From: an uncultured Desulfobulbaceae bacterium
GTDB lineage: Bacteria; Desulfobacterota; Desulfobulbia; Desulfobulbales; CALZHT01
Direction: 5' to 3'
Length of the DNA stretch: 64,000 nucleotides
NCBI GenBank assembly: GCA_945787445.1
Contig: CALZHT010000024.1
Location: 2,398-66,397, forward strand
Numbering within the stretch: the stretch's first letter is position 1; each line of letters opens with the position of its first letter. Shown here one piece after another: positions 1-45,738 of this stretch. Under the pieces are notes generated by a model. The model searched no databases. It saw only the letters and a program-made list of their open reading frames with translations, and was not told where the DNA came from. The translations under genes were made by a program, and so were the position numbers.

Positions 1-139
1 GAGCTGCGCCATTATTTCTGCCAGAATGAATTGCTCGGTAAAATTTTTTGAGCCTATTCGTATCGTTGGTTTGCCCTTATCTTTTGCACAGCCAGAGAGA
101 AGAAAGGAAAAAAGGAAGAGAAATATAATTCCGATGAGA

Positions 140-340
140 CTCGAATAGCACTTCATATGTCGCATAGTTTTTCCCTTGATGCTCGTAACCGTTCACGGGG
201 GAAAAACACCGAATTTTCGGCTCCCCCAGGAATTGTAAGCGTTTATAGGTGTCGGAGATGTGCGTTTTCAGGGTGATCAGCTATACACCTGTATGCTGAT
301 TACACTGAAAACGTGCAGATTCGGTGCCTGTGAACGCTTA
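140..340 (-). promoter_or_regulatory. Copy 1 (most diverged) of a triplicated ~180-nt structured intergenic element, immediately downstream of the ABC permease gene and upstream of whatever lies beyond the window edge
   Basis: Shares the motifs gtaaccgttcac, gtaagcgtt and cctgtgaacgcttac with the elements at 1738-1934 and 3492-3661. It contains the same GTAAGCGTTCA / TGAACGCTTAC inverted half-sites. Confidence 0.45.
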
Positions 341-351
341 CATTGGCTGGC

Positions 352-987
352 TTATTTTCGTTTCCAGATAAGGCTTTCCACGAAACCAAGAAAAAAATCA
401 ATCGTCAGGGCTAAAATAGCAGCCGCGCCCGCACCGAGAAAAATCAGGTTCGTGTTATTCAGGGCAAGTCCCCGATTAATGAAATCACCCAAGCCCCCCG
501 CTCCTATAAATGATGAGAGTGTGGCAATCCCCACCCCAATAACCGCAGCTGTCCGAATTCCAGCAAAAATAACAGGCATGGCAAGAGGAAGTTCAACAAG
601 ACATAACATTTGCTTGGGAGTAAATCCCACTCCGGTTGCTGCCTCAATGATTTCATCGGAAATATTCGTTAAGCCGGTGTAGGTATTTCTGATAATCGGC
701 AAGAAGGCATAGAGAGTCAAGGCAACGATGGCAGGCTTGATGCCAATCCCCAGTATAGGGAGCAGAAAAGCCAGCATGGCAAGACTGGGAATTGTCTGGA
801 CAACGCCGGCTGCGGCTAGCACTGTGCCCCTAATAGTCTTATGGCGCGTAATGAGAATACCGAGTGGAACACCGGCTAGTATTGCAAACGAGGTCGAAAC
901 TCCGGTGAGCACTACATGCTCCCTGAATTTGATCAGTAATTCGGGACTTTTCTCAATCAAGAAATCAATCATGCCAAAGCAGTCCAA
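352..987 (-). CDS. ABC transporter permease, osmoprotectant (glycine betaine/choline/carnitine) OpuCB/ProW type
   Basis: 211-aa ORF, multi-pass hydrophobic, with a typical BPD-transporter inner-membrane signature. It overlaps the upstream ATPase gene by 19 nt, suggesting translational coupling. Confidence 0.8.
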   Translation of the reverse strand: MDCFGMIDFLIEKSPELLIKFREHVVLTGVSTSFAILAGVPLGILITRHKTIRGTVLAAAGVVQTIPSLAMLAFLLPILGIGIKPAIVALTLYAFLPIIRNTYTGLTNISDEIIEAATGVGFTPKQMLCLVELPLAMPVIFAGIRTAAVIGVGIATLSSFIGAGGLGDFINRGLALNNTNLIFLGAGAAAILALTIDFFLGFVESLIWKRK

Positions 988-1730
988 AAATCCTTTAACT
1001 GTTCCGCTGGTTTCGCAAAGAGGTTCCTGACAAATTGTGATGCGGGTTTTTGCAGGATTTCAGTTTTCGTCCCTATCTGTTCAATACGTCCCCCATGCAT
1101 AACAGCGATCCGGTCAGCAAGAATCAGGGCCTCAATGATATCATGGGTTACAAAAATGACAGTCTTCTGAAATTCATTTTTCAATTTCAGAAACTGCTGT
1201 TGTAATGCGTCTCGGGTCAGGGCATCTAAGGCGCCAAAGGGCTCATCCATGAGTAGATATTTGGGGTTGGCCGCCAGGGCCCTGGCGACTCCGACCCGTT
1301 GCTGCTGCCCTCCGGAGAGCTGAGCAGGATAACAGTTTGTGAAACGCTGTGGATCAAGTTCCACCATTTCGAGCATCTCTCGGGCACGGTCACGGCGTTG
1401 TTGACGACTCTTGCCGCAGAGGCGCAGGACAATAGAGATGTTGTCAGCCACGGTCATATGAGGAAAAAGTCCAATACCCTGAAAGGTATAGCCGATGGAA
1501 CGCCGCAAATCCTGGGGATTCTGTTGCAGAACATTTTTGCCGTCGACCTCGATACGGCCGTTGTCCGGTTCAATCAGCCGGTTAACCATTTTCAGGGTCG
1601 TGGTTTTTCCACAGCCGGATGTGCCCAGGAGGACCAGGGTTTCCCCTTCAAAAACGGTGAGGGAAAGGTGGTTCACCGCAAAGGTCTTTCCCCCATCAAA
1701 TGATTTGCAGACATCCCAAAGCTGAATCAT
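969..1730 (-). CDS. ABC transporter ATP-binding protein (OpuCA-like, no CBS tail)
   Basis: Walker A GTSGCGKTT, ABC signature LSGGQQQRV and Walker B LLMDEP. Sits directly upstream of the permease. Confidence 0.85.
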   Translation of the reverse strand: MIQLWDVCKSFDGGKTFAVNHLSLTVFEGETLVLLGTSGCGKTTTLKMVNRLIEPDNGRIEVDGKNVLQQNPQDLRRSIGYTFQGIGLFPHMTVADNISIVLRLCGKSRQQRRDRAREMLEMVELDPQRFTNCYPAQLSGGQQQRVGVARALAANPKYLLMDEPFGALDALTRDALQQQFLKLKNEFQKTVIFVTHDIIEALILADRIAVMHGGRIEQIGTKTEILQKPASQFVRNLFAKPAEQLKDFWTALA

Positions 1731-1737
1731 GCACTTC

Positions 1738-1934
1738 TCTCACAACCTGAATTGTAACTACTCACGTAATGGAATGCGTGTAACCGTTCACCGGGTTACG
1801 CTTCCGAACAATTGAGCAATCTATTGCGCTGTAAGCGTTCAGAAGTGCCTCAGATGTGCGTGAACAGTCTGGTGAAGCATAGTCTCCTATGTGAATCAGG
1901 CTGGTCGCGTGCAGGTGAGGTGCTGTTGAACGCT
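1738..1934 (-). promoter_or_regulatory. Copy 2 of the triplicated structured intergenic element, between the AsnB-like gene and the ABC ATPase gene
   Basis: About 90% identical to 3492-3661 over about 160 nt. A long-range 22-bp helix (GTAAGCGTTCAGAAGTGCCTCA ... TGAGGTGCTGTTGAACGCTTAC) encloses about 70 nt, and there are additional GTAACCGTTCAC and GTGCGTGAACAG half-sites. Confidence 0.55.
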
Positions 1935-3484
1935 TACGCATGCGTCAGGGTGCCGTCCATGGTTCCGCGAACTTCTTCACGTTCTTCGGCAAAATCAAAA
2001 CCGGTCCAGATGCCGATGGATTTCAGAATGGAATCCTGTGGATGAAATTCCCTGAAAATTTTGAAGTAGAGGGCCGCCTCCTTGCTGGTTATTGCGGCCT
2101 GGGGGTGATCATGCTGCAGCCTTGCCAGTTCGTCGTCGCTGATATCTTTTTCCGCAAGTTTTTCTCCCAATGATTCACAACCCGCACCCTGGGTGTACTG
2201 GACTTTGTAGCGCCAGAGTATTTCATCGGGAAGCAGGCCGCTATCGGTAAAGGCCTGGCGGAAAATCCATTTTTCGATTTTAGCGCCGTTTTCCTCCTTG
2301 ATCTTCAAGTGGGCCGGTATTTCCATGGCCAGGGCGATCATCTCCTTGTCGAGAAAAGGGACCCTCAGTTCGAGGTTGAAATACATGCCCATGCGATCGG
2401 CGCGCTGTAGATTGATATTATGCAGACCTTGGGTGCAGCGGCGCCCCTCTTCATTGAGCTTATCCAGAGGGAAATGTTTCATGTAGTGGTAGCCTGCAAA
2501 AAGCTCGTCCGCGCCCTCTCCGGTCAAAACCACAGTGACATGTTCGGCCGCAAGTTTACAGGTGAAATAACAAGGCACACTTTCCAGTTTTTTAATAACT
2601 TCAGGCAGGGCTGCGTAATAGTCTTCTTCGCTGAAGGCAAGTTCATGATGAGTGGAGCCGATATGCCTGGCCGCAATCCGGGCTGCCTTAAAATCATCAC
2701 TCTCGTTGCCCTCGTCGTCACGCATGCCGACAACAAAGGTATGCAGGTTTGGAATTTCCTCTGCGGCAATGGCCGCAACAAGGGAACTGTCCAAACCGCC
2801 GCTGCAGAATGAACCAACCGGCACGGTGGGGTCGGCCAGTAAACGTTTTTTGACCGATTGAATAAAAGTCGCCTTGATCTTGGCGCAGATGGCCTCGATA
2901 TCCGAGAGAGGCATCTGGGCTACCCGAGGAACGGTGTAATAGGCCACAAATCCATCTTCGGGCGTATAATAATGGCCGGGAGGAAACTCATGGGGTTCCG
3001 CAACCCCGGCCAAGCTCATGGCACCGAGTTCCGAGGCAAAATACATTACATCACCATGATAGCCGTAATAAAGCGGTTTAATCCCGATGGGATCACGCGC
3101 CAACATGAATGAGTCATTATCGAAAAGAGCAAAGGCAAACATGCCGTCAAGCTCACGCACGCATTCAGGACCTCGCTCTTCATAGAGGGCCAGAATTACC
3201 TCTGAATCGGAATGGGTTTGAAAAGGATATTGATCTGCAAGTCTCTCCCGGATGGCACGAAAGTTGTAGATCTCACCATTGGCAATTAATCCCTTTGAAC
3301 CATTTACATTGACAATGGGCTGGTGGCCGTGGGCAACGTCAACAATTGACAGCCTTGTATGGCCAAAAATCATCTTTTCTCTACTATGGAGACCACGGTC
3401 ATTGGGACCACGATGGACCAAAGCGTCCAGCATCAGGTTAACTGTTGTCTCATCCCTGGGCACCCACACAACCTGCAATACCAC
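1934..3484 (-). CDS. Asparagine synthetase (glutamine-hydrolysing) family protein, AsnB-like. The annotated frame starts with GTG and lacks the Cys2 nucleophile. The canonical MCGIAG start is in the -1 frame just upstream (ATG at 3488).
   Basis: PP-loop SGGLDSS and the AsnB synthetase domain are present. NLMLDALVHRGPND matches the AsnB N-domain. ATG TGT GGT ATT GCA GGT (MCGIAG), with a taaggag RBS, reads from 3488 but hits TGA after 12 codons. Confidence 0.75.
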   Translation of the reverse strand: MVLQVVWVPRDETTVNLMLDALVHRGPNDRGLHSREKMIFGHTRLSIVDVAHGHQPIVNVNGSKGLIANGEIYNFRAIRERLADQYPFQTHSDSEVILALYEERGPECVRELDGMFAFALFDNDSFMLARDPIGIKPLYYGYHGDVMYFASELGAMSLAGVAEPHEFPPGHYYTPEDGFVAYYTVPRVAQMPLSDIEAICAKIKATFIQSVKKRLLADPTVPVGSFCSGGLDSSLVAAIAAEEIPNLHTFVVGMRDDEGNESDDFKAARIAARHIGSTHHELAFSEEDYYAALPEVIKKLESVPCYFTCKLAAEHVTVVLTGEGADELFAGYHYMKHFPLDKLNEEGRRCTQGLHNINLQRADRMGMYFNLELRVPFLDKEMIALAMEIPAHLKIKEENGAKIEKWIFRQAFTDSGLLPDEILWRYKVQYTQGAGCESLGEKLAEKDISDDELARLQHDHPQAAITSKEAALYFKIFREFHPQDSILKSIGIWTGFDFAEEREEVRGTMDGTLTHA

Positions 3485-3491
3485 ACATACA

Positions 3492-3661
3492 ATCTCCTTA
3501 TTAGTTGTAACCGTTCACCGGGATACGCCTCTGAATAATTGAGCCATATATTGCGCTGTAAGCGTTCAGCAGTGCCTCAGATGTGCGTGAACAGACTGGT
3601 GAAGCATAGTAGTCATATGTGATCCAGGCTGGTCGCGTGCAGATGAGGTGCTGCTGAACGT
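3492..3661 (-). promoter_or_regulatory. Copy 3 of the triplicated structured intergenic element, between the SAM-MTase gene and the AsnB-like gene
   Basis: Same architecture as 1738-1934. The 22-bp long-range helix is perfect if G-T pairs are allowed, and the changes relative to copy 2 preserve pairing. Confidence 0.55.
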
Positions 3662-4903
3662 TTACAATTTGTTGATCTCAAAAATACCGACCAGACTGTG
3701 CCCCATACCGCTTCCCGGTTGCAGGTCAATTTCCAGTTTACGCAGGGAATAGCCTAGCTGCGGTTCAATGATATTGGCCCGTGGGTCGCCAAAACGCAAC
3801 ATACTGGCCGCCTCAACCACACCACGCATGGAGTTGATCGCATCCTTGAGCGGTTCTGGATAGAAAGGTTCAATTCGAGTTTCGGTCTCACCGTCATTGA
3901 GACCTGCCAACATGGCGATGGTGTGCTCTACCAGGGTGTTACAACACATGAAAAATGACTCAAAAAAATTATTCAGGTGGGTAAAACCGTCACGTGGGAC
4001 ATAATTGATCATTAAGCGCTCAAGATCCGTGCGCGTATAACTTTCAAATAGAGAATTTATTGGCAAACGCAGATCCTGGCAGTGTCTGTTATAATCTCCT
4101 GTTTCCAAGTGACGGCCGACGAGAATAGATCGATCAAAAAAAACAATCGGCTTTATCTCAACTCCCGTTTCTTTCCGAACACGGTCAATAATGGCCATGA
4201 TCTCATCCTTGATCATCAATCTCAGTGGAAATGCCGGGATATCTGCCTTGTCGCGCTCATCGGGAGAATAAATATAGGAAATGCGATAATCCATGAAATA
4301 CTCTTCATGGGGAGACATATGCCAGAGATCCTGCCATTCATAGGAGTACCGCCCCAGCCAGTCACCGACAAAAATAGCCTTTTCCGGTGCATGTCGGCAT
4401 ATTTCACTGATGACCTTCACCGCCTGATCATCATGAAAGTGGCTCATGGTTCCATACGAGGTCAGGTAGACGTCAAATGGATCTTCCCCCTCTGGCAGGC
4501 CGGCAGAAAGATCATGTTTTGCAAAGCGTATTTTCGGGTTGTGCTCATAATGACTGCGGGCCTGTTCCAGCAGATTATCGTTTATGTCTATGCCGAGATA
4601 GGCCTGCAGCATATCATCTGTCAGTGCCTGGTGGATATATTCATACAGTCCTGGATCTTTGGAGGTGACCCCCGAGATCAAATCAAAACCGTCTCCACTG
4701 CCGCAGCCCAAGTCGAGAATACGCAGTCGTTCAAGACGCTGACGCTTATAATCGACCATTTCATTAAGAACCGGGCGCAGGAATATGCCGGAAAGCTGGT
4801 CTTCCCAGAACCGTCTGACATTATCATACTTACCGGACAACCCGGAATCCTTGATATATTTGCCGGTACCTGCCGCCTGGTTATAGGCTTTAATTTCTGC
4901 CAC
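3662..4903 (-). CDS. Class I SAM-dependent methyltransferase with a long C-terminal extension (413 aa), substrate unknown
   Basis: Motif I ILDLGCGSGDG with a downstream acidic loop. GTG start with a gagggaga RBS. Embedded in the methyltransferase/transporter cluster. Confidence 0.65.
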   Translation of the reverse strand: MAEIKAYNQAAGTGKYIKDSGLSGKYDNVRRFWEDQLSGIFLRPVLNEMVDYKRQRLERLRILDLGCGSGDGFDLISGVTSKDPGLYEYIHQALTDDMLQAYLGIDINDNLLEQARSHYEHNPKIRFAKHDLSAGLPEGEDPFDVYLTSYGTMSHFHDDQAVKVISEICRHAPEKAIFVGDWLGRYSYEWQDLWHMSPHEEYFMDYRISYIYSPDERDKADIPAFPLRLMIKDEIMAIIDRVRKETGVEIKPIVFFDRSILVGRHLETGDYNRHCQDLRLPINSLFESYTRTDLERLMINYVPRDGFTHLNNFFESFFMCCNTLVEHTIAMLAGLNDGETETRIEPFYPEPLKDAINSMRGVVEAASMLRFGDPRANIIEPQLGYSLRKLEIDLQPGSGMGHSLVGIFEINKL

Positions 4904-4915
4904 TGTTCATCTCCC

Positions 4916-5326
4916 TCAAGATGCTTTGAGCCAGTCCAGCACGGCAAAAGCATCTATACAATGGGTATCAGCGCCGACCTTATCTGAAAATTCCTGTGAG
5001 GTTGGAGCCCCGCCAATGGCAATTCTCACTTCATTACGGAGTCCCTCCTCTTTCAGTTGGATGACAACTTCTTCCATCTTGCGCATAGTCGTAGTTAGTA
5101 AGGCCGACATGCCTAGGAAAGGAGCTTTTTCTTTTTTTACGGCATTGATTATTTTATCGGTTGAAACATCAACACCAAGGTCAATGACTTCATATCCTGC
5201 GCCCTTCAACATGATAGCAACGATGTTTTTGCCGATGTCGTGAAGATCTCCGGCCACCGTTGCGATAATAAATTTGCCTTTTGATTCAACTCCGGCTTTG
5301 AGCAGATGTGGGGTCAAAATATCCAT
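4916..5326 (-). CDS. Corrinoid (B12)-binding protein, Rossmann B12-binding domain part (MtgC/MttC-like)
   Basis: DxHxxG cobalt-ligand motif GDLHDIGKN and the GG..T motif. The N-terminus MDILTPHLL matches the helix preceding the B12 domain. Confidence 0.75.
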   Translation of the reverse strand: MDILTPHLLKAGVESKGKFIIATVAGDLHDIGKNIVAIMLKGAGYEVIDLGVDVSTDKIINAVKKEKAPFLGMSALLTTTMRKMEEVVIQLKEEGLRNEVRIAIGGAPTSQEFSDKVGADTHCIDAFAVLDWLKAS

Positions 5327-5526
5327 GCCTGCCCCAACTCCATGGAAGCGGTCAAGCCCTTGATCAGGATATCCCCAGGCATGAGACCCTGGGCCAAAGC
5401 CTCTGTAACCAACTCAGTTACCGCCGGCTGGTCTTCAAGGCCTTCGTCAAAACCTTCGTCTTCCGCTTCAACACGACCCTGGATAACGTTAATGGCAATT
5501 TGTTCCAGTATGTTTTCTGTTGTCAT
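5314..5526 (-). CDS. Corrinoid protein N-terminal cap (B12-binding_2) domain, a separate ORF overlapping the B12-domain ORF by 13 nt
   Basis: 70-aa ORF ending ...ILIKGLTASMELGQAWIF, typical of the MtmC/MtgC cap helix bundle. Its stop TGA overlaps the ATG of the next ORF (ATGGATATTTTGA). Confidence 0.6.
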   Translation of the reverse strand: MTTENILEQIAINVIQGRVEAEDEGFDEGLEDQPAVTELVTEALAQGLMPGDILIKGLTASMELGQAWIF

Positions 5527-5609
5527 TGGTCAATTCTCCTCGTCTATCAATTTTGATGCTTTCGCAGATAAGCGTAAGACATCGAAAAGTCTAAAATTTA
5601 AGATGGCCA

Positions 5610-7142
5610 TCAGATTTGTTTCAATCGTGGCAATACCCCTGGAATTTCTTGATAAATCTTTTCGATAATATCAGGGTCAAGATGCTTTGGCGGCCGAGAT
5701 TCCAGCTCACCCATATGAGCGAGAGCTTTTTCTAACACTCGGTCTTCCATATCTTTTGATTCAAATCGATAGGGCTCTGAAACATCCCCGGCCCGAACCG
5801 GTTTTCGGGTATGCCGAGTAAAAAGCTTATGACTGGTTGCCATGACCTTGCGCACTATTTCCAGGGCTTCCTGGCTTACGGCTGCATCGATCTTTGCCGG
5901 CCGCATGCAATGTTTGGCTAATCCCACCTGTTCGTTGTCCAGCACTGCCTGGAGTGGTGAAAAAGTATTGGTGCGATCCAACAGGCCGAAGGCATAATGA
6001 ATGTACTGCGCTCCGCTGGCCGCCATGTAGAGATGGGAAAATAATTTTTCAAAGGTGGCCTGCATACCCGGCACCTTGCTGTTGCCGACTCCGGTGCTGG
6101 AATAGCATGGCAGTTTGTAAAAACGAGCCAATTGCACGCAGTCGATATTGTATTGATTGAATTCCGGACAACCGTAGAGATCATGCAGGTCATCAAGGCG
6201 GGCCCGAACCGGAACAGAGCCATATAGAACTGGTGTGCCTGGACGAATAAGCTGGGTCAAAGCAATGCCGGTTAAAATTTCGGCATTAATCTGGGCCACT
6301 ATGCCGGCTTCCTGAATCGGTGCGGAGGAGCCCCCTTGGGGAGAAGAAGAAATTACCAGCGGCATTTCCTTTTCAACAATGGCAAATACTTTATCAGCTG
6401 TATCGTCGACGAGTTGCAAGGGGCTTTTAAATACGCAGGCAATAAATGACAAAACCGGATTTTCCCGAAGAGCTTGAGGGCCACCTGCAATAATTTCCGC
6501 CATCCTGATCACATCGTCCAGAGCATTTATACAGGTGAGTCCGGCCTGAACATGTTTGGTGATATTATTGAGGCTGGCAAAGAACTTGTTGACATCATGG
6601 TTCCTTGCATCAATATCGTCGTCCTGAATATTGACCGGTCTGATGAAAAAATCGAGATGCTCCAGCTGTTCACAGAGATGAGCAGCCCTGCACAACAATG
6701 CAGCACTCCCCCTTTTCTCGGTATGTCGAGGCAACATGCGCTTTTGGTTTTGATCTGCCGCTGAGACATACTCATCCAACTCGGTCTCCAGCCAGATATT
6801 GCTTTCTGAACCGGATCCGAAGTAAACTCGGGGAATTTCAGCGTTTATATCAAGCCGATTCTGGGGATCACGAGCCCCCAAGATAATTTTTGAGGGAGCA
6901 TTGGCTATTGCCTTGGTGATTAATGATTCCGGGATACGTACCCGCCAAAAAGTATCACTGGGACTTTCCTCCAGGACAACCTCGGCGCCATTGGCTTCAA
7001 AAAGTTCGGCAGCGCGGCGGTTGTAACACCAGATACCCGGATCTTCCAGGATGGCCATGGAAGCACGATGCAGTTCTGCCAATTGGTCTTGATTGAGTCG
7101 TTCGTACGGTTTGACAATATTTCCATCACGAAAAGTGTCCAT
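5610..7142 (-). CDS. MttB-superfamily methyltransferase (non-pyrrolysine; glycine betaine/quaternary amine:corrinoid methyltransferase, MtgB-like), paralog 2
   Basis: About 510-aa TIM-barrel MttB-family sequence with no in-frame amber codon. Start chosen at MDTFRDGN (ATG 7142), preceded by an aaaaaggagaaat RBS. The longer ORF-track start at 7190 would overlap the upstream gene. Confidence 0.8.
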   Translation of the reverse strand: MDTFRDGNIVKPYERLNQDQLAELHRASMAILEDPGIWCYNRRAAELFEANGAEVVLEESPSDTFWRVRIPESLITKAIANAPSKIILGARDPQNRLDINAEIPRVYFGSGSESNIWLETELDEYVSAADQNQKRMLPRHTEKRGSAALLCRAAHLCEQLEHLDFFIRPVNIQDDDIDARNHDVNKFFASLNNITKHVQAGLTCINALDDVIRMAEIIAGGPQALRENPVLSFIACVFKSPLQLVDDTADKVFAIVEKEMPLVISSSPQGGSSAPIQEAGIVAQINAEILTGIALTQLIRPGTPVLYGSVPVRARLDDLHDLYGCPEFNQYNIDCVQLARFYKLPCYSSTGVGNSKVPGMQATFEKLFSHLYMAASGAQYIHYAFGLLDRTNTFSPLQAVLDNEQVGLAKHCMRPAKIDAAVSQEALEIVRKVMATSHKLFTRHTRKPVRAGDVSEPYRFESKDMEDRVLEKALAHMGELESRPPKHLDPDIIEKIYQEIPGVLPRLKQI

Positions 7143-7153
7143 ATTTCTCCTTT

Positions 7154-7951
7154 TTATTTTGCCCGCCAAAACCTTGAATATTTTCGGCAATGACGGTCAC
7201 GCCCCATGATAGCCTCAGCGGTTTTCGCGGCCCCCACGAGTTCGTGATCAAGCACATTGAGTATGGCTCCGTCCAAACCGGCAAAAATAGCCATATGAAA
7301 AAAGGCGGTATTGAAAATCTTTCGTTTGGGTAGCCCAAAAGAGATATTGGAAAGGGCCATCACGGTTTTTGATTGCGGCAGCGCCTTTTTGATGGCACGG
7401 ATCGTATCAAGGGTAACTAACCCTTGTTGCACGTCCGTGGAAACCGGAAGAACCAATGGATCAAAATAAAGGTTTTCCAGGGGAACGCCGTTTTTTTCGC
7501 AGCCAGCGGCAATTTTCTCACAGGCAGCCACCCGCTTATCAACGGTCTTAGGAATTCCTTCCTCATCCATGGCCAGGCCGACCAAGGGGGCATTATATTC
7601 ACTGGCAAGAGGCACTACAGCATCAATGTATTTGTCTGATCCCTTGGTTGAGTTGATGAGAGCGGGACGCCCGTCACGTGCGGCAAGGCCGGCGGCAAGC
7701 ACTTTCGGGTCCGCACTGTCTATACAGAGCGGTACGTCGAATTTCTCCTGAATAGAGGTGACAGCCCAATGCATGGCCTCAATTTCGTCTTGCTGGTTAC
7801 CGGAACCGGTGCCAACATTGATGTCAATATAATCAGCCCAGGCCTGGGCCTGTACTTCGGCCAACTCTAAGAGCTTTGTTGTATCTTTTTGCTCAATAAT
7901 CTTTTTAGCCGATGGGATTGAGCCATTAATTTTTTCAGCAATAAAAATCAT
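7154..7951 (-). CDS. Methyl-corrinoid:tetrahydrofolate methyltransferase (pterin-binding, MtrH/MtgA-like)
   Basis: 265 aa with N-terminus MIFIAEKINGS typical of MtrH/MtgA pterin-binding (DHPS-like) barrels. Lies between the two MttB paralogs. Confidence 0.75.
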   Translation of the reverse strand: MIFIAEKINGSIPSAKKIIEQKDTTKLLELAEVQAQAWADYIDINVGTGSGNQQDEIEAMHWAVTSIQEKFDVPLCIDSADPKVLAAGLAARDGRPALINSTKGSDKYIDAVVPLASEYNAPLVGLAMDEEGIPKTVDKRVAACEKIAAGCEKNGVPLENLYFDPLVLPVSTDVQQGLVTLDTIRAIKKALPQSKTVMALSNISFGLPKRKIFNTAFFHMAIFAGLDGAILNVLDHELVGAAKTAEAIMGRDRHCRKYSRFWRAK

Positions 7952-7956
7952 TTCAT

Positions 7957-9420
7957 CTACTCCATGATAAAAGACTGGATGGCTGGTATTTCTGCTTTAA
8001 TCCAGTCTCTTACGTCTTGATCCAAGATATTTTCTGCCGGGGAATCCAGAACCTGTTTAACATAGGCGGTTGCCCGCTGCCAGGCGTCGGCGGAGCCTGC
8101 ATTCTGCCACTGTGAGCGGGTGTCACGGTCACTGAGTTGTGGGCGGTACTGCTCGGTACGCATATACTTTCTGGTATGTCTTGAGGAGACAAAATGACCG
8201 CCAGGCCCTGCCTTTTTAATTTCATCAAAGGCAATGGTCCGGTCGGTGACTTCGATTCCTTCCACGGCTCGCATTACCATGCCGATTATCTCATTATCGA
8301 CAACCAACTTGTCAAAAGACGCTGTCATGCAGAATTCGACAAAACCGGCAGCGTCATGAATAAAATTAGCCCCGGCCAGAGCAACCAGGGTTGAGGTGAT
8401 AGCTGATTCATAACCGGCCTGGGCATCAATCACTTTGGAGTCGGTCATACCGGCGGTTGCATAAAACGGCAGCTTATAGAACTGGGCCATCTGAGCCCCT
8501 GCCGCGTTCATCAAACCCATCTCAACAGCGCCGGACAGGTATTTCATGTCACGCAGATCGGTGATTGATGATATACAGCCGTAAATAGCGGGACAGCCGG
8601 AATTAAAAAGCTGGGTCATGATGATGCCGGCCAGGGTGTCGACATTCTGGACGACCAAGTTGCCGGCCAGGGTAATAGGGGCGGTGGCGCCGCACAAAGG
8701 TTCGGCAGGCACCACAATCGGGATTGAATTTTTGGCCGCTTCCACCGCCAGCATGCCATAGCTTTCATCAAGCTTAAAGGGACTAATTGGGCAGGCAACC
8801 ATGGAGATGAATGGCTTTTGGCGCAAAGCTTCAGGCGAACCGGCGATTTTTTCAGCCATGTGGATGACATTACGCACCCCATCCACGGTATAAACGCCGC
8901 CCATGATATGTTTGTTGGTGCTGTTTAAGGCAGCGCCAAAACGGTTTACATCAATTTCTTCCACCGGCAGATCGCTGGGATAGACGTTCAACATGTAAAA
9001 GTGGATGTTGTTCAGACTCTCCACCATCCGAGCCATATTCCTGACGTCTTTGAGCTGTGCACGCCGAGCAGTAGCACTGCCGGCCTCCTGAACATTCAGA
9101 GCGGTGCCGCCTGTGCCCATGTAGACCTTGGTTCCGCCTATTACAAGGTCATGTTCACCGAAAGGATCTCTGCTGTGTAGAACAATCGATTCAGGGACTT
9201 CTGCCAGAAGCCTTTTAACCTGATCGGCTTTTAGTTTAACTATATTTGTTTTATGATCAATCTCGGCTCCGGCCTCCTGAAAAGCGGCAAGGGCCTCAGG
9301 GTAATTAACTTGAATGCCGACTTCCTCGAAGACCTGCATGGAAGCCTGATGGATCTTGACAATATCTATTTCTGTCAGTGGCTTATAGGCGCCACCGTGA
9401 AGACCTTTTCTCGATTTCAT
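7957..9420 (-). CDS. MttB-superfamily methyltransferase (non-pyrrolysine), paralog 1
   Basis: 487 aa, homologous throughout to the 5610-7142 product. No amber codon. Confidence 0.8.
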   Translation of the reverse strand: MKSRKGLHGGAYKPLTEIDIVKIHQASMQVFEEVGIQVNYPEALAAFQEAGAEIDHKTNIVKLKADQVKRLLAEVPESIVLHSRDPFGEHDLVIGGTKVYMGTGGTALNVQEAGSATARRAQLKDVRNMARMVESLNNIHFYMLNVYPSDLPVEEIDVNRFGAALNSTNKHIMGGVYTVDGVRNVIHMAEKIAGSPEALRQKPFISMVACPISPFKLDESYGMLAVEAAKNSIPIVVPAEPLCGATAPITLAGNLVVQNVDTLAGIIMTQLFNSGCPAIYGCISSITDLRDMKYLSGAVEMGLMNAAGAQMAQFYKLPFYATAGMTDSKVIDAQAGYESAITSTLVALAGANFIHDAAGFVEFCMTASFDKLVVDNEIIGMVMRAVEGIEVTDRTIAFDEIKKAGPGGHFVSSRHTRKYMRTEQYRPQLSDRDTRSQWQNAGSADAWQRATAYVKQVLDSPAENILDQDVRDWIKAEIPAIQSFIME

Positions 9421-9479
9421 CTGATTTTTCCGGCTAAATATGTGTTTCTGTGGAAATGAACATCATTTCTGGACAGAGA

Positions 9480-10247
9480 CTAGTTGATTGTTTTAGCAGG
9501 ACTGCGTCTGGCGAGACAGTCCTTTTTAAAACAGTAGAAACAAGGGTTGTGTATTTTTGTCGTCGGCCCCCTCCCTTTCGGGTAGAGACCAAAAACAGCA
9601 GAAATTGATTTGCGTGGTGTCATCAGCGAACTTTTGTCCAGTGTCACACCAATGGCTCCGGCATCTACGAGCGAAAAGAGCTTGTGTTGCTCTGTTACAT
9701 GCCAGTCGCAATAACCGGGGCTGAAACGGATCCCAGCGGCAGTATGCACTTGGTGAGGTGAAAATTTCCGGTCAAAACCGGATTGAAATCTTTCAGCAAC
9801 AGATTCAACTGCTCCGGACCCCAAGGCATCACAGGTATAGGCATTAGCAATTTTGCCCTGATCCATCAGCTGCTCGACCTTCATATCAATTTTTCTGCCG
9901 ATGGTAGCAACAAAACAAACCAGCTGTTCTGCGCCGGTCATGGCTCTAGCCATCTTATGGCTTTTTAAAGTGAGCCCCGAGACAAATTCAATCTGGTCTT
10001 TTTCAATCGCAGCAATAGGAAAAACTCCCCAAACAACCCTTGGATGCAGCAATCGATACACTCCTTCGTGCATCTGCTGCAGTCGGTTTCTTGTCGAACG
10101 GGTTAAACTGCCGGCTTTTTGTCGACCGAGTAGCCTTTTGACGAAATCCATATCAAACTCCGGCTCATAATCTGCCAGTAAAGATGTCGCCTGGATGGAG
10201 GGCTCTATGAGGCTGACAGTTGATCTTATTTTGTTGGTCTGTTCCAT
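9480..10247 (-). CDS. Methionine-synthase activation-domain-like (Met_synt_B12 fold) protein with a C-terminal Cys cluster; putative corrinoid-cycle accessory protein
   Basis: RFSPGYCDWHVTEQHKLFSL resembles the MetH AdoMet-binding activation-domain core (..SPGYP.CPDH..K....LL). C-terminal CFYCFKKDC. First gene of the minus-strand cluster. Confidence 0.45.
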   Translation of the reverse strand: MEQTNKIRSTVSLIEPSIQATSLLADYEPEFDMDFVKRLLGRQKAGSLTRSTRNRLQQMHEGVYRLLHPRVVWGVFPIAAIEKDQIEFVSGLTLKSHKMARAMTGAEQLVCFVATIGRKIDMKVEQLMDQGKIANAYTCDALGSGAVESVAERFQSGFDRKFSPHQVHTAAGIRFSPGYCDWHVTEQHKLFSLVDAGAIGVTLDKSSLMTPRKSISAVFGLYPKGRGPTTKIHNPCFYCFKKDCLARRSPAKTIN

Positions 10248-10998
10248 ATTCTTTTTTTTGTTATTTGTAGGTTTTGAAAAACATCCGGGTACTTCCTATT
10301 CCTCTATCTCTGCTAATGTTGTTCGCTATTAGCGACTAAATCACTAGAAATCGGCGACCGATTCGCATAATTGAAACACTTCATTCTATAGGTGGATACT
10401 ATGCGTGTGGGAATCGCTGGCTATGGAAAAAGCTCGATTGGAGGGTTGAATAATTCGACTTTAAATATCTTAATAAGATTGATAATCATTAATCTGTCAA
10501 CTCCGAGGAATAATAGTTTTTATATGAAATCGTGTTACTATAACATTGTGCATAGAAATAACAAGTTGCATAGAAATAACAAGTTGCATAGGGATAACAT
10601 TCTTGTTGGTGAAAGCCAACTCCACACCCTAATTAATGATTACTTTGGTGGGAATTTCAAGCAGTTAAAAGGAAAAATGAAGTTCTTGGAAAGAGAGAGA
10701 AATGAGGATAAGCAGGAGGGTGCTGAAGAAGGGGGGAAAGTTTTAGCTGTGGAAAAGTACGTTTTAGCTATCATTATCTTTAATAAGATCAAAGTCAATA
10801 TTTGTTGCCATTATCTTGAATCGTGCAACTGATGGTCGAGTCATCACTTCCTTGCCACCATCTGAATTCGCTAAAAATGGCAACTCGTTCAATATGTAAT
10901 GTGGTTATGAAAGGTCATTTTTTTCAAAATGTCCTGGACAAGCTGCAATATAGAAACATTGACTTTCATTGTGGACAAACTCTTAGGGAGGTATATGG

Positions 10999-11150
10999 AC
11001 TCTATTCTTACCAGCAAGAGTCAAGCAAAGACGCGACCCCTTTTTTCTTGAGTCAAGCAAAGACGCGACCCCTTTTTTCTTACTTTTTTTTACTTACCAT
11101 TTTTGATACCAGCAAGAGTCAAGCAAAGACGCGACCCCTTTTGTAGTCAA
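10999..11150. repeat. Three direct copies of a 28-34-bp unit (ccagcaagagtcaagcaaagacgcgacccctttt) abutting the truncated IS30 gene
   Basis: Direct repeats read at 11008-11045, 11049-11080 and 11104-11141 with irregular spacing. They lie adjacent to an AT-rich island (10390-10990) that also carries 2x aataacaagttgcatag. Confidence 0.6.
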
Positions 11151-11460
11151 TAAAAAGACGCTGTGATATTTCTTCCGGTGACCATTGTTTTCTAAGCCTT
11201 GCTTCCACATACCGTACCAGACGCAGATTTTTCTTTCTGCGGTAATGCCGTGCCTTGCAAACTCTCTTTTTAGCTAAAGGTTGGCTCCAGTCATACCAAT
11301 AGATAGCGATTGGATATCGTGAATTCGCTCGTTTCAGTTCGCGGCTGATTGTTGAGTGGTGACGATTCAAGCGTCGTGCTATTTCTCGCAAACTAAATCC
11401 AGCTACCTTTAAATGGCTGATGACATATCGTTCTCGTTCGGTTAAATGGGTGTAGGACAT
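11119..11460 (-). pseudogene. IS30-family transposase, N-terminal HTH fragment only (113 aa of an expected ~340)
   Basis: MSYTHLTERERYVISHLKVAGFSLREIARRLNRHHSTISRELKR is the IS30 HTH_38 N-terminus. The ORF terminates where the tandem repeats begin. Confidence 0.65.
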
Positions 11461-11619
11461 GATGGGGCTCCTTCTGGCTTTGAGTTGGTCGTGCTTCTCA
11501 ATATACCAGAAACCCTGTCATGTCCTGTTGTTAACTCAAATGGTGCACTTTGAACTTGAATCTACCCTTCCTTGACCCCTTCCCAGACCCCTTCACTTCA
11601 TTCATTACTTTATGGTGTT

Positions 11620-31362: not shown

Positions 31363-31869
31363 AGCCCCACCTCTTTTTTTGACATTATTTATGAAAACAA
31401 TGAACTCCCGCCTACGTGTGTTTAACTGAGCATTCACCACGACTTGTGACTGATTAGGCATTATTAACAGTTACGTTATAATTATAAATATTTGCCAGGC
31501 ATAGAGGCCGTGGAAAGCTTTACTTTTTATACTCCTTGCTCTATAACCTATCGTGCAGCAAAGGGGAAATCATCCTTATGTCCACGCTGCCGAAGGATAA
31601 AGAAACCGAATTTTTAATGTGTGCCTTTCGTAATTGATCACTGGGTAAGGCAACAACGTATTACGTTCGCATCTCTGTCCGTAATCGGTCACATGGTGCC
31701 GCAGTTCCGCGAAAGAGGCGTGTACGCTGTATATTGCCTATACTGCCGCGCCGCTAACAAAGGAGATGCAGTTCCCTGTTACCGCTTATTGCAATTCAGG
31801 TTTAATAAAACGTTAGAGCGGAAAAAAGATGAACAGTCAAGAAAAAAAATAAAAACTGGAGATTCAAAA

Positions 31870-33126
<1,257 letters not shown>

Positions 33127-44794: not shown

Positions 44795-44925
44795 AAATTT
44801 TGAAGGCTAATACCAAGTTGCATTCAAAGAGGTAACAAGCCGACGACGCAGCCAATTCAGTTCAATCCCACTTGAGGGGGACAAAGTTTAGAATTTGAAT
44901 GCGACGCGGTATAAGTGGTTACTGC
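44795..44925 (+). promoter_or_regulatory. Conserved structured 5' leader upstream of the HAD/SPS operon. It is homologous to the leader of the RRM gene at 47517-47789.
   Basis: A long-range stem GCATTCAAA (44818) / TTTGAATGC (44893) encloses the hairpin TCCCACTTGAGGGGGA. About 85% identical to the reverse complement of 47826-47975 apart from a 45-bp indel. Confidence 0.5.
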
Positions 44926-45735
44926 ATGAAAAAAGATGCTCTCCTGGCTAGTGACATGGATGGCACTGTCATCCCACTGGACGATAAAGAAGAACGCGCC
45001 GAAGAGATTCAGCATTTTAATACGCTTATTGAGCAACATTCAGGTGTTGCCCTTGCCTATGTGACCGGCAGGCACCTCGAGTTGGGCCTGGCCGGTGTCG
45101 AACAATACAGCCTCCCGTTGCCACATATTTTTGTCTGCGATGTGGGTACCACCATTTACCTGCGCGAGAATGGCCGGTGGAACCAGGACCAAGAGTATAA
45201 AAAAGACCTGTCCCGAGCATGGGGCGGCAGAACCGGTAAAGATATTGCGGTTTTTTTAGCGGAAGATAGCATACTAACCGCCCAAGAAGAAGAGAAACAA
45301 AAGGAATTCAAGCAAAGTTATTATGTTTCTCTCTCTATCGATCACAAAACTATCGTCAGTACAATTGAAAACCTCCTAGCGGAGAAAGGCGTAAAGGCCA
45401 ACGTTATATACAGTGTGGACACCAAAAAACATGTCGGCCTTGTTGATGTGCTACCCAGTGTTGCTGCCAAGGATTATGCTTTAAGTTATTTATGGAAGCG
45501 TCTTGAACTTGACATGGAAAGGATCGTCTATGCAGGAGATTCAGGCAACGACCTTCTTGCCTTTGTGAGCGGTTTCAACGCCATAGTGGTGAACAATACC
45601 GCTGCAGCAGTCAAAAAAGAGGTGCGTTGCCAGGCGCGGGATAAGGGCATCGAGCACAGGATCTTTTTTGCCGACCAAAAGTATGTGAAGGGCGTGATTG
45701 AAGGTTGTTATCATTTCAAACTGTTTACGGAGTAA
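44926..45735 (+). CDS. HAD-IIB family phosphatase, sucrose-phosphate phosphatase-like
   Basis: DxDGT motif (SDMDGTV), the C-terminal GDSGND motif, and genomic pairing with an SPS-like glycosyltransferase. The alternative start at 44899 lies inside the conserved leader. Confidence 0.65.
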   Translation: MKKDALLASDMDGTVIPLDDKEERAEEIQHFNTLIEQHSGVALAYVTGRHLELGLAGVEQYSLPLPHIFVCDVGTTIYLRENGRWNQDQEYKKDLSRAWGGRTGKDIAVFLAEDSILTAQEEEKQKEFKQSYYVSLSIDHKTIVSTIENLLAEKGVKANVIYSVDTKKHVGLVDVLPSVAAKDYALSYLWKRLELDMERIVYAGDSGNDLLAFVSGFNAIVVNNTAAAVKKEVRCQARDKGIEHRIFFADQKYVKGVIEGCYHFKLFTE

Positions 45736-45738
45736 TCG

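Follow-up and report, generated by a model that had tools for sequence, protein, structure and literature searches.

A conserved Desulfobacterota gene cassette proposed to combine solute synthesis with corrinoid-dependent demethylation

The window, a 64,000-nucleotide stretch of DNA from an uncultured Desulfobulbaceae bacterium, carries a set of corrinoid-dependent methyl-transfer genes joined to a SAM-dependent methyltransferase (MTase), an AsnB-like amidotransferase and a betaine-type importer. Our preferred explanation, in which we place roughly even confidence, is a two-module operon: the MTase and AsnB-like enzymes would make a solute, the corrinoid genes would demethylate it, and the MttB paralogue MttB2 would be the dedicated demethylase. 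The original prediction held that an amidotransferase and a SAM-MTase within such a cluster had not been described, and our literature searches likewise turned up no account of the cassette.

Gene content and lesions of the locus

All nine genes of the original prediction lie on the minus strand in the order first given, and Pfam and NCBIfam confirmed their families. In transcriptional order, the features are:

9480..10247, minus: ActD, stand-alone MetH-type activation-domain protein (255 aa; Pfam Met_synt_B12, 44 bits against a gathering score of 25)
7957..9420, minus: MttB1, non-Pyl MttB-family substrate:corrinoid methyltransferase (487 aa; Pfam MTTB, 358 bits)
7154..7951, minus: methylcorrinoid:tetrahydrofolate methyltransferase, MtgA/AcsE-like and pterin-binding (265 aa; Pfam Pterin_bind; NCBIfam NF005719, 284 against a cutoff of 259)
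5610..7142, minus: MttB2, divergent non-Pyl MttB paralogue (510 aa; Pfam MTTB, 205 bits)
4916..5526, minus: corrinoid protein gene, disrupted (cap-domain frame from ATG 5526; B12-binding domain as a separate ORF, 4916-5326)
3662..4903, minus: class I SAM-dependent methyltransferase of an uncharacterised family, the MTase (413 aa; helical C-terminal half)
3502..3661, minus: intercistronic repeat copy 1, a long imperfect hairpin in the MTase/AsnB-like gap (folding energy -50 kcal/mol, z = -3.55)
1934..3488, minus: AsnB-like amidotransferase gene, type A, disrupted (Pfam GATase_7 and Asn_synthase)
1775..1938, minus: intercistronic repeat copy 2, in the AsnB-like/ABC ATPase gap (folding energy -52 kcal/mol, z = -3.44)
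969..1730, minus: ABC ATPase, ProV-like, without CBS domains (253 aa; TIGR01186, 309 bits)
352..987, minus: ABC permease, OpuC/ProW-like (Pfam BPD_transp_1)
185..345, minus: intercistronic repeat copy 3 (diverged), in the permease/substrate-binding-protein gap
1..165, minus: substrate-binding lipoprotein gene, ProX/OpuAC-like, 5' part only, cut by the window edge (read from the sequence)

The start codon of MttB2 is ATG 7142 rather than TTG 7190; its relatives are 510-513 aa long. Repeat copy 2 is absent from the corresponding place in locus L007. The partial lipoprotein reads MRHMKCYSSLIGIIFLFLFSFLLSGC (the lipobox) and then IRIGSKNFTEQFILAEIMAQL, which matches the N-terminal Lys13 motif of Archaeoglobus fulgidus ProX (AfProX). 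This gene at 1-165, the corrinoid lesion and the AsnB-like lesions are three points absent from the original prediction.

The corrinoid and AsnB-like genes had been taken as intact, and in this respect the first gene calls need correction. A 67-bp deletion at 5338/5339, seen in comparison with every relative examined, interrupts the corrinoid gene, taking out EVGKKFETGEYLIPDMLAAAEA of the cap domain and shifting the frame. Its relatives are 224-227 aa long with B12-binding_2 and B12-binding domains; in the window, a 136-aa ORF matches Pfam B12-binding and has the DLHDIG (DxHxxG) motif. In the AsnB-like gene, one base is inserted in the G run at 3454-3456, so that the true frame (MCGIAG...) ends after 12 codons, and 27 bp are deleted in frame at 2578/2579 with loss of YDPSLVRCA. 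Values of dN/dS lie at 0.06-0.26 over every gene, the two broken ones included (0.06-0.16 except for ActD at 0.21-0.26; MttB1 against its relatives, 0.06-0.10), which indicates purifying selection on every gene, corrinoid and AsnB-like included. The lesions in these two genes are recent and disabling, and the operon is probably non-functional as sequenced in this genome.

Conservation of the cassette and its methyl-transfer genes

The order ActD, MttB1, pterin methyltransferase, MttB2, corrinoid protein, MTase and AsnB-like recurs in approximately 160 related Desulfobacterota loci, and relatives of the MTase are encoded in 409 species-level genomes. The cassette of seven genes is kept in hundreds of genomes of sulfate reducers. 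In neighbourhood counts based on the MTase (80 loci kept), the corrinoid gene was found in 79/79 cases, MttB2 in 64/64, the pterin methyltransferase in 58/61, MttB1 in 54/57, ActD in 49/52 (upstream of the MTase) and an AsnB-like gene in 59/65 (downstream of the MTase), the latter being missing beside the MTase in six of the 65. Counts based on MttB2, from 80 metagenome loci retrieved with this protein, were uniform: corrinoid 64/64, MTase 46/46, AsnB 37/37, pterin methyltransferase 66/66, MttB1 51/51 and ActD 44/44, again upstream. The arrangement persists as MTase identity falls from 95% to about 60%, and is seen in Desulfobulbales, Desulfobacterales, Syntrophobacterales, Desulfatiglandales, Syntrophales and Desulfobacca. 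Desulfurivibrio dismutans and Desulfoferrobacter suflitae are cultured carriers. Co-conservation, proposed at the outset as a check, is thus strongly positive: the MTase and AsnB-like genes track the MttB genes across several Desulfobacterota orders, so that the association cannot be set aside as a chance neighbourhood. Such an accident, with a housekeeping asnB and an unrelated methyltransferase lodged between a betaine demethylase cluster and a transporter, might be suspected given that asnB, metK and ahcY are housekeeping genes and that type A AsnB-like proteins score above the AsnB cutoff. It is extremely improbable with the order preserved across these groups, and is already refuted by the reciprocal co-conservation and by AsnB-MTase fusions.

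The original prediction of two non-Pyl MttB paralogues was borne out. Neither MttB1 nor MttB2 contains an in-frame stop codon, and both fall under the TIGR02369 cutoff (452 against 525 for MttB1). Met325 of MttB1 aligns with the Pyl residue of 7XCL; MttB2 has Val at this position and an insertion of approximately 45 aa (142 bits against 7XCL). The closest solved structure to MttB1 is Desulfitobacterium hafniense MtgB (2QNE/9YCE, 269 bits). In ActD, an RFSPGYCDW motif and four cysteines (C180, C236, C239 and C244) are invariant in five orthologues.

The methyl-transfer genes resemble the D. hafniense MtgB/MtgC/MtgA system, and likewise Methanolobus vulcani MtgB and Eubacterium limosum MtpB/MtcB/MtyB, in having a non-Pyl MttB, a corrinoid protein with cap and B12-binding domains and a pterin-binding methyltransferase. 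In contrast to these Mtg-type systems, the cassette has two MttB paralogues on one corrinoid protein, a SAM-binding activation domain of MetH type, carrying a Cys cluster, as its proposed reactivase in place of RamA, and an obligate link to a SAM MTase and an AsnB-like gene. Its corrinoid protein falls under the NCBIfam MtgC cutoffs (206-213 bits against 370). Ruegeria pomeroyi MtgB/MtgC/MtgD(/MtgE) also comprises separate MttB, corrinoid and pterin genes, tied to the SAM/methionine cycle (PMC12478193). That system is aerobic and alphaproteobacterial, uses a homocysteine-binding MtgE and RamA/DUF1638 reactivation, lacks a SAM methyltransferase/AsnB partner, and has scattered genes rather than one cassette (PMC12478193).

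R. pomeroyi MtgC and MtgD function in methionine synthesis as well as in demethylating glycine betaine (PMC12478193), a precedent for reading the cassette as a split methionine synthase or SAM-cycle device, with MetH-like corrinoid, pterin methyltransferase and activation components and a methyl cycle completed by MTase, MetK and AhcY. The domain set is that of MetH minus its homocysteine domain, and MetK and AhcY adjoin in some loci (10/41 and 7/41 long loci, respectively). We nonetheless consider this very unlikely: no S-methyl_trans (homocysteine-binding) domain was found in the cassette or in conserved flanking families, and the AsnB-like gene, the betaine importer and the stand-alone AsnB-MTase-importer units would be left unexplained.

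The AsnB-MTase pair and its importer

The AsnB-MTase pair also exists apart from demethylation genes. Fusion proteins of 901-949 aa join the two enzymes (P0151, P0162 and P0271-P0273). The fused gene (in L089, L090 and the P0151 contig) and an overlapping AsnB/MTase pair (L175/L176) each directly precede genes for an ABC ATPase of 255 aa and a permease-OpuAC fusion, and neither MttB nor corrinoid genes occur over 8-10 kb around these units. A further overlapping pair, in L092, lies within a different ABC operon. In other lineages and phyla, the stand-alone pair adjoins a ProX-like betaine importer, often with MetK, AhcY, Usp, MscS and Na+/H+ antiporter genes nearby.

The importer of the stand-alone units is the same as that of the window operon: the window ATPase is 50% identical to the one following the fused gene in L089, and the window permease shows 48% identity to the corresponding part of the permease-OpuAC fusion in L089. 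Family matches and a ligand signature uphold the earlier assignment as betaine-type. The AfProX residues K13, Y63, T66, Y111, R149, F190 and Y214 in this signature, whose roles in AfProX were reportedly described by Schiefner et al. in 2004, are common to 18/18 substrate-binding proteins examined. AfProX binds glycine betaine and proline betaine. The cassette-system binding proteins score 208 bits against AfProX and keep the Tyr cage and the Lys/Thr/Arg carboxylate ligands, with a conserved Y190F change; unlike OpuA/OpuC, the cassette ATPase has no CBS domains.

The AsnB-like proteins fall into three types, all of which keep the synthetase-site residues. Types A and A' exceed the AsnB equivalog cutoff of 499 on NF006949 (597 bits for the intact type A orthologue in L007; 574 for type A'). 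They have the active-site residues of ordinary short-type bacterial AsnB, and asparagine itself may be all that they produce. In type B, the form seen most often in Desulfobacterales, the glutaminase nucleophile is gone along with four other residues of the glutaminase site, and the chemistry may be different. These two points, and the six loci without an AsnB-like gene beside the MTase, weigh against the two-module operon. Type B reaches only 98-119 bits on the lasso-cyclase model, far under the cutoff of 525. The MTase weakly matches solved carboxyl O-methyltransferases (JHAMT, E = 3e-4).

These data bear on the original idea that the accessory enzymes modify a catabolic substrate or product. 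A purely catabolic locus would have both MttBs demethylate an imported quaternary amine, with the AsnB-like enzyme and MTase processing substrate or product, by carboxylate amidation or esterification for example, for degradation or detoxification. The apparent single operon with a betaine importer, a MarR regulator in the same operon in relatives, the carboxyl O-methyltransferase matches and the dead glutaminase domain of type B, which marks those proteins as something other than ordinary asparagine synthetases, all fit such a scheme. We judge it rather unlikely, since the occurrence of the pair with a ProX-like importer, fused or coupled, without MttB or corrinoid genes implies a primary role independent of demethylation, and that role looks biosynthetic. 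Adjoining MetK and AhcY suggest that SAM flux is high, which typifies the making of a solute and not a side reaction, and types A/A' resemble true asparagine synthetases.

The same stand-alone pairs, found in several lineages, make it highly doubtful that the AsnB-like enzyme and MTase modify a methyl-transfer protein or cofactor, whether by an MttB2 modification replacing pyrrolysine or by a modified corrinoid. Type A, which reaches AsnB equivalog level, is moreover glutamine-dependent, and the low type B lasso-cyclase scores also argue against it.

Another use of the importer can be envisaged, in which a methylated precursor would be taken up and the AsnB-like enzyme and MTase would finish an osmoprotectant, its methyl groups being recovered later by the MttBs. 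Choline is turned into glycine betaine in this manner by OpuB and GbsAB of Bacillus subtilis. Translational coupling of the importer to AsnB and MTase, and a binding site suited to a ligand already bearing quaternary ammonium and carboxylate groups, agree with precursor conversion, but a trimethylammonium ligand needs no more N-methylation, and types A/A' keep the residue set of ordinary AsnB. Clusters that couple synthesis of a solute with its recapture are no less common, and we give precursor conversion only a slim chance.

A proposed scheme for synthesis and demethylation

In the two-module operon that we favour, module 1 would consist of ActD, MttB1, the pterin methyltransferase, MttB2 and the corrinoid protein. 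Each MttB would transfer a methyl group from a quaternary amine to the Co(I) corrinoid protein, and the pterin methyltransferase would pass it on to tetrahydrofolate. ActD would rescue oxidised Co(II) corrinoid by SAM-dependent reductive methylation, standing in for the ATP-dependent RamA. Module 2 would comprise the MTase, the AsnB-like amide synthetase and the ProX-like ABC importer, together with MetK and AhcY in many relatives. Its product, probably a methylated osmolyte that the module also re-imports, would by our inference be an N-methylated betaine with an alpha-carboxylate, derived from asparagine or a similar amide; the AsnB-like enzyme would give the amide and the MTase would add N-methyl groups from SAM. 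Against this, literature searches found no microbial report of asparagine betaine or trimethylasparagine.

MttB2 is never found apart from the MTase, and is for this reason our candidate for the dedicated demethylase of the MTase-made solute. MttB1, the paralogue nearest glycine betaine MtgB, probably acts on imported glycine-betaine-like compounds or in a second demethylation step. We know of no non-Pyl MttB that demethylates a tertiary amine, and a two-step role for MttB1 and MttB2 is to our knowledge without precedent. Synthesis and degradation modules in one apparent operon would run as a futile cycle unless regulated after transcription.

Parts of the scheme have counterparts in known solute pathways. 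In the NAGGN pathway (Ngg and the AsnO amidotransferase), an AsnB-family enzyme likewise makes a compatible-solute amide. The cassette AsnB-like proteins, however, score far under the cutoff of the NAGGN amidotransferase model (109-277 bits against 570), and the cassette has no Ngg ligase, its partner being a methyltransferase. The GSMT/SDMT genes for glycine betaine synthesis (Methanohalophilus, Halorhodospira and Aphanothece) are often clustered with metK and ahcY. The cassette MTase shares only 13-15% identity with GSMT/SDMT, and its conserved helical C-terminal half is an addition. Its pairing with an AsnB-like protein is obligate, at times as a fusion, whereas glycine methylation by GSMT/SDMT needs none.

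Genes of the SAM cycle and of osmotic stress near the cassette or its MTase also speak for the two-module operon. Besides MetK and AhcY, TrkAH and MscS lie near the cassette in Desulfoferrobacter suflitae, NhaA and MscS adjoin a distant MTase, and Usp genes are found nearby, in one case as a Usp-MTase fusion (P0181).

Conservation of the methyl-transfer cassette

The original prediction placed nine genes on the minus strand, in the order of a quaternary-amine methyl-transfer locus followed by an importer. This order was borne out, with each family confirmed by Pfam and NCBIfam, and a tenth gene encodes the substrate-binding lipoprotein (SBP) of the importer. A promoter and terminator scan yielded sites no more numerous than in shuffled sequence.

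Genes of the locus, in order of transcription (whole-window positions)
9480-10247, minus strand: ActD, a MetH-activation-domain protein
7957-9420, minus strand: MttB1, 487 aa
7154-7951, minus strand: pterin-binding methyltransferase (PF00809; NF005719, 284 bits against a cutoff of 259)
5610-7142, minus strand: MttB2, 510 aa
4916-5526, minus strand: corrinoid protein gene, disrupted
3662-4903, minus strand: 413-aa class I SAM methyltransferase (MTase)
1934-3488, minus strand: AsnB-like amidotransferase gene, disrupted
969-1730, minus strand: ProV-like ATPase without CBS domains
352-987, minus strand: ABC permease
from 165, continuing past the window edge, minus strand: SBP lipoprotein of the importer

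The MTase family is highly conserved: more than 120 homologues share at least 59% identity with the MTase, nearly all of the named ones coming from Desulfobacterota. When one genome per species was scanned, 409 genomes had MTase relatives. We kept 80 MTase loci for counting and scored each gene only where flanking sequence sufficed. Upstream of the MTase, the counts were 79/79 for the corrinoid gene, 64/64 for MttB2, 58/61 for the pterin methyltransferase, 54/57 for MttB1 and 49/52 for ActD; downstream, 59 of 65 loci had an AsnB-like gene. In the reverse test, with MttB2 as the query against metagenome contigs, every locus scored had the corrinoid gene (64/64), the MTase (46/46), AsnB (37/37), the pterin methyltransferase (66/66), MttB1 (51/51) and ActD (44/44). 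The AsnB-like and MTase genes had been singled out as unusual accessories that might have been there by chance; since the cassette from ActD to the AsnB-like gene is conserved in both search directions, we reject a chance neighbourhood.

Hosts of the cassette include Desulfobulbales, Desulfobacterales, Syntrophobacterales, Desulfatiglandales, Syntrophales and Desulfobacca, with three cultured carriers: Desulfoferrobacter suflitae, Desulfurivibrio dismutans and Desulfurivibrio sp. D14AmB. Clustering of all flanking ORFs revealed no additional universally conserved partner; among loci of 15 kb or more, the recurring extras were an Opu-type transporter (14/41), MetK (10/41), MarR (8/41) and AhcY (7/41). 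Three loci (L043, L063 and L075) retain just MttB2, the corrinoid gene, the MTase and AsnB, which marks these four as the tightest core. In many Desulfobacterales (loci L057, L059, L061-L063, L066, L067, L084 and L088), a second, different MttB cluster adjoins the cassette. Besides a corrinoid gene and a pterin methyltransferase, it holds two MttB genes that share 30-37% identity with MttB1, and the two clusters together form a small methylotrophy island.

MttB paralogues and the corrinoid module

In anoxic sediments, sulfate reduction, acetogenesis and methane formation all draw on quaternary amines as a major source of methyl groups. To our knowledge, substrates have been assigned to only a handful of MttB-family enzymes. 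MttB1 and MttB2 match PF06253 with 358 and 205 bits, respectively, and both are uninterrupted ORFs without an amber codon, as originally predicted. The pyrrolysine (Pyl) residue of the solved trimethylamine methyltransferase 7XCL aligns with Met325 in MttB1 and with Val in MttB2; the codon at this position is AUG or GUx, with no UAG. Scores against TIGR02369 (452 and 260 bits) both fall under its cutoff of 525 and, together with the absent UAG, rule out a Pyl-dependent trimethylamine methyltransferase. Both proteins are thus non-Pyl members of the MttB superfamily. Among solved structures, MttB1 is closest to Desulfitobacterium hafniense MtgB (269 bits, against 252 for MttB), while MttB2 is far more divergent, with MttB as its best match (142 bits) and MtgB at 128.

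A full-length match to the Rfam family PYLIS_3 lies inside MttB1 (8349-8448, minus strand; 67 bits against a gathering score of 38). It starts at an AUG codon, the UAG of the model being aligned with Met325, the Pyl-equivalent position. We set aside a working PYLIS and read the match as homology of conserved coding sequence; it could nevertheless mean that MttB1 descends from a Pyl-encoding ancestor.

The cassette has no gene for a RamA-like ATP-dependent reductive activase. In ActD, the MetH-type motif RFSPGYCDW is present and four Cys residues are invariant, and on these features it probably fills the place of RamA; with its SAM-binding activation domain and Cys cluster, it is a candidate alternative to RamA for corrinoid reactivation. 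In the pathway we propose, an MttB would move a methyl group from a quaternary amine to the corrinoid protein in its Co(I) state, as in MtgB/MtgC/MtgA systems, and the pterin methyltransferase would hand this group on to tetrahydrofolate, with ActD probably reactivating Co(II) by SAM-dependent reductive methylation. Compared with the MtgBCA type, this demethylation half is a variant in which two MttBs share a single corrinoid protein and the reactivase is of another kind. We also considered a split cobalamin-dependent methionine synthase (split MetH). The homocysteine-binding S-methyltransferase domain PF02574 is missing from the nine genes and from the conserved families of 83 related loci, and this reading was rejected on that ground. 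The demethylation half is also reminiscent of the split MetH/betaine system of Ruegeria (PMC12478193), but lacks a homocysteine domain.

The MTase and AsnB-like pair and its putative product

The MTase family is narrow, with only 340 clusters in a profile search of 1.84 billion representative proteins. Its members include AsnB-MTase fusions of 901-949 aa and a Usp-MTase fusion. In two related loci (L089 and L090) and on the contig of one further family member (P0151), genes for a 255-aa ABC ATPase and a permease-OpuAC fusion come immediately after the fused AsnB-MTase gene; in L175/L176, the same two genes directly follow an AsnB/MTase pair that overlaps. None of these units has an MttB or corrinoid gene within 8-10 kb. 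MarC and Usp genes are often near such stand-alone units; a MarC-family membrane protein of approximately 205 aa lies directly beside the AsnB/MTase/ABC unit in unrelated lineages (L003/L004, 13015-13626; L089, 15148-15765; L090, 7932-8552), and may be a further component of it, possibly with a role in efflux. The MTase of the Microscillaceae subfamily has no AsnB neighbour. More distant MTases overlap an AsnB gene within another ABC operon (L092), lie near AsnB and glutaminase genes on a cyanobacterium-like contig (L091) or adjoin NhaA and MscS genes (L094).

Searched against the PDB by sequence and by profile, the MTase had no matches beyond weak, JHAMT-like ones. Judged by sequence or by close structural similarity, substrate-binding residues included, it falls outside the GSMT/SDMT methyltransferases that synthesize glycine betaine. 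The likeness of the AsnB and MTase half to GSMT/SDMT-plus-MetK betaine operons, and to the AsnO step of NAGGN synthesis, is one of logic only; it belongs to neither. Searches of the full-text literature turned up no account of the cassette or of the MTase family, and no microbial pathway to an asparagine or glutamine betaine.

Three types of AsnB-like protein follow the MTase. Type A, the Desulfobulbales form to which the window belongs, begins MCGIAGC; type A' begins MCGIAGIWG; and type B, the commonest form in Desulfobacterales, begins MSG or MAG. Against the asparagine synthase B model NF006949 (cutoff 499), type A scores 597 bits in the intact orthologue of a close relative (L007), which starts MCGIAG and has a conserved PP-loop, type A' scores 574 and type B 364. 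In type B, the Cys nucleophile and four more residues of the glutaminase site are gone, and the PP-loop and synthetase-site residues are kept, so the enzyme must draw on free ammonia or some other amine, or else pair with a type A' protein; types A' and B are both present in five loci. The active-site differences from Escherichia coli AsnB (TT to SL/DL/AL, K376, D384N, N389D and K390R) are common to ordinary short-type bacterial AsnB, and we rejected them as the mark of a new substrate.

The importer of the window is 50% (ATPase) and 48% (permease) identical to that of the stand-alone unit L089. All 18 SBPs compared, from cassette and stand-alone loci alike, carry K13/Y63/T66/Y111/R149/F190/Y214 in the numbering of Archaeoglobus fulgidus ProX (AfProX), matching its Tyr cage and its Lys/Thr/Arg carboxylate ligands; AfProX binds glycine betaine and proline betaine, and its residues are reported to have these roles (Schiefner et al. 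2004). The SBP of the window itself ends at the window edge after approximately 55 aa, so that only the Lys13 motif is visible. By its aromatic cage and carboxylate ligands, the importer is predicted to be a compatible-solute ABC importer of the ProX/OpuA type.

The cassette ties one MttB paralogue to a narrow MTase family and an AsnB-like enzyme. This linkage singles out one particular biosynthetic pair, and what the pair makes is likely to be the substrate of that MttB. Most plausibly, the MTase, AsnB-like protein and importer make and recapture an alpha-carboxylate betaine derived from asparagine. We infer this from the AsnB fusions, the coupling to a ProX-like importer, the neighbouring SAM-cycle genes, the neighbouring osmotic-stress genes and the occurrence of the unit without the methyl-transfer genes. 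MttB2 would then demethylate the product, and is the natural candidate because it and the MTase are never apart in Desulfobacterota; MttB1 may take glycine-betaine-like imports. The main weakness of this scheme is that synthesis and degradation, if co-transcribed, would be futile without post-transcriptional control. Two alternatives are live: that the AsnB-like protein and MTase are purely catabolic, and that the unit with the importer brings in a precursor and converts it.

Returning to synthesis, we tentatively suggest, as something possible rather than probable, that the AsnB-like protein and MTase make an undescribed compatible solute, that MttB2 is the first member of its superfamily dedicated to a self-made betaine, and that sulfate reducers of marine and saline sediments make the solute and recover its methyl groups via tetrahydrofolate. 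The most likely candidate for such a solute would be N-alpha-trimethyl-asparagine or a close amide betaine. If this were true, a new quaternary amine would be added to the anoxic methyl cycle. There is a realistic chance that behind the cassette lie an osmolyte pathway and an MttB substrate that are both new; a product that proved to be a new betaine would mean a new osmolyte pathway across several phyla, corrinoid methyltransferases with a new class of substrate, and synthesis and methyl recovery encoded together.

Lesions, repeats and other genes of the window

The corrinoid and AsnB-like genes are present in the order originally predicted, but both are disrupted, which that prediction had overlooked. 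Alignment of the region with the nearest relatives (L007 and L008, approx. 90-94% nucleotide identity by segment; L009, 93-94%) showed three changes in these genes specific to the window. The corrinoid gene has a 67-bp frameshifting deletion at 5338/5339, flanked by short imperfect direct repeats, which takes out a conserved segment of the cap domain; a cap fragment of 69 codons remains, along with a separate B12-binding ORF of 136 aa that carries DLHDIG (DxHxxG). In relatives, the protein is intact at 224-227 aa; the combination of a four-helix cap, a Rossmann B12-binding domain and DxHxxG is found in the cassette family and not in the window copy. In the AsnB-like gene, the G run at 3454-3456 has gained 1 bp, possibly through a sequencing error; this insertion stops the true MCGIAG frame after 12 codons and splits the N-terminal Cys from the remainder of the protein. 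A 27-bp in-frame deletion at 2578/2579 removes YDPSLVRCA, nine residues of a conserved loop. This corresponds to the YDVTTIRAS loop of E. coli AsnB, which mutagenesis has implicated in beta-aspartyl-AMP formation.

Pairwise dN/dS is 0.08-0.16 for every gene, the two broken ones included, except ActD (0.21-0.26). These low values indicate that the lesions are recent, and on them we reject long-term gene decay; the operon is probably inactive in this genome as sequenced. The window also lacks the MarR gene found ahead of the cassette in L007, L008 and other loci. In its place is an AT-rich stretch with short tandem coding-like repeats (NNKLHRNNKLHRDN) at 10392-10832 (plus strand) and approximately 10773-11600, homology to L007 stopping near 10772. 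In L007, the closest relative, the ABC ATPase gene after the AsnB-like gene has shrunk to a 123-aa remnant (10046-10436), while the window has a full transporter but no MarR, and two of its other genes are lesioned; close strains are thus losing different parts of the operon.

An intercistronic element of approximately 150 nt occurs three times in the locus, with no further copy in the other 60 kb.

Copies of the intercistronic element (whole-window positions)
3502-3661, minus strand: gap between the MTase and AsnB-like genes
1775-1938, minus strand: gap between the AsnB-like and ATPase genes
185-345, minus strand: gap between the permease and SBP genes, a diverged third copy

The first two fold into long imperfect hairpins of approximately 100 nt (-50 and -52 kcal/mol, respectively; z approx. 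-3.5) that match no Rfam family, and an inverted repeat, GTAACC...GGTTAC, marks the 3' end of all three copies. Relative to L007, the second copy, in the gap after the AsnB-like gene, is an insertion. The element may be a REP- or MITE-like repeat, or one that stabilizes or processes mRNA.

Elsewhere in the window, an EgtD-like histidine-specific methyltransferase (53219-54313, plus strand; Methyltransf_33, 319 bits) would make hercynine (histidine betaine). It is followed at 54317-57712 (plus strand) by a 1131-aa fusion of a molybdopterin oxidoreductase and a class V aminotransferase, the latter possibly an EgtE-like C-S lyase, and an unusual anaerobic pathway of the ergothioneine type is possible for the two genes. 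Other osmoadaptation-type genes nearby encode a sucrose-phosphate phosphatase with a sucrose-phosphate-synthase-like glycosyltransferase (44899-47097, plus strand), a GH15/trehalase-like-DUF547 fusion (49988-52639, minus strand) and a Na+/H+ exchanger (31621-33126, plus strand).
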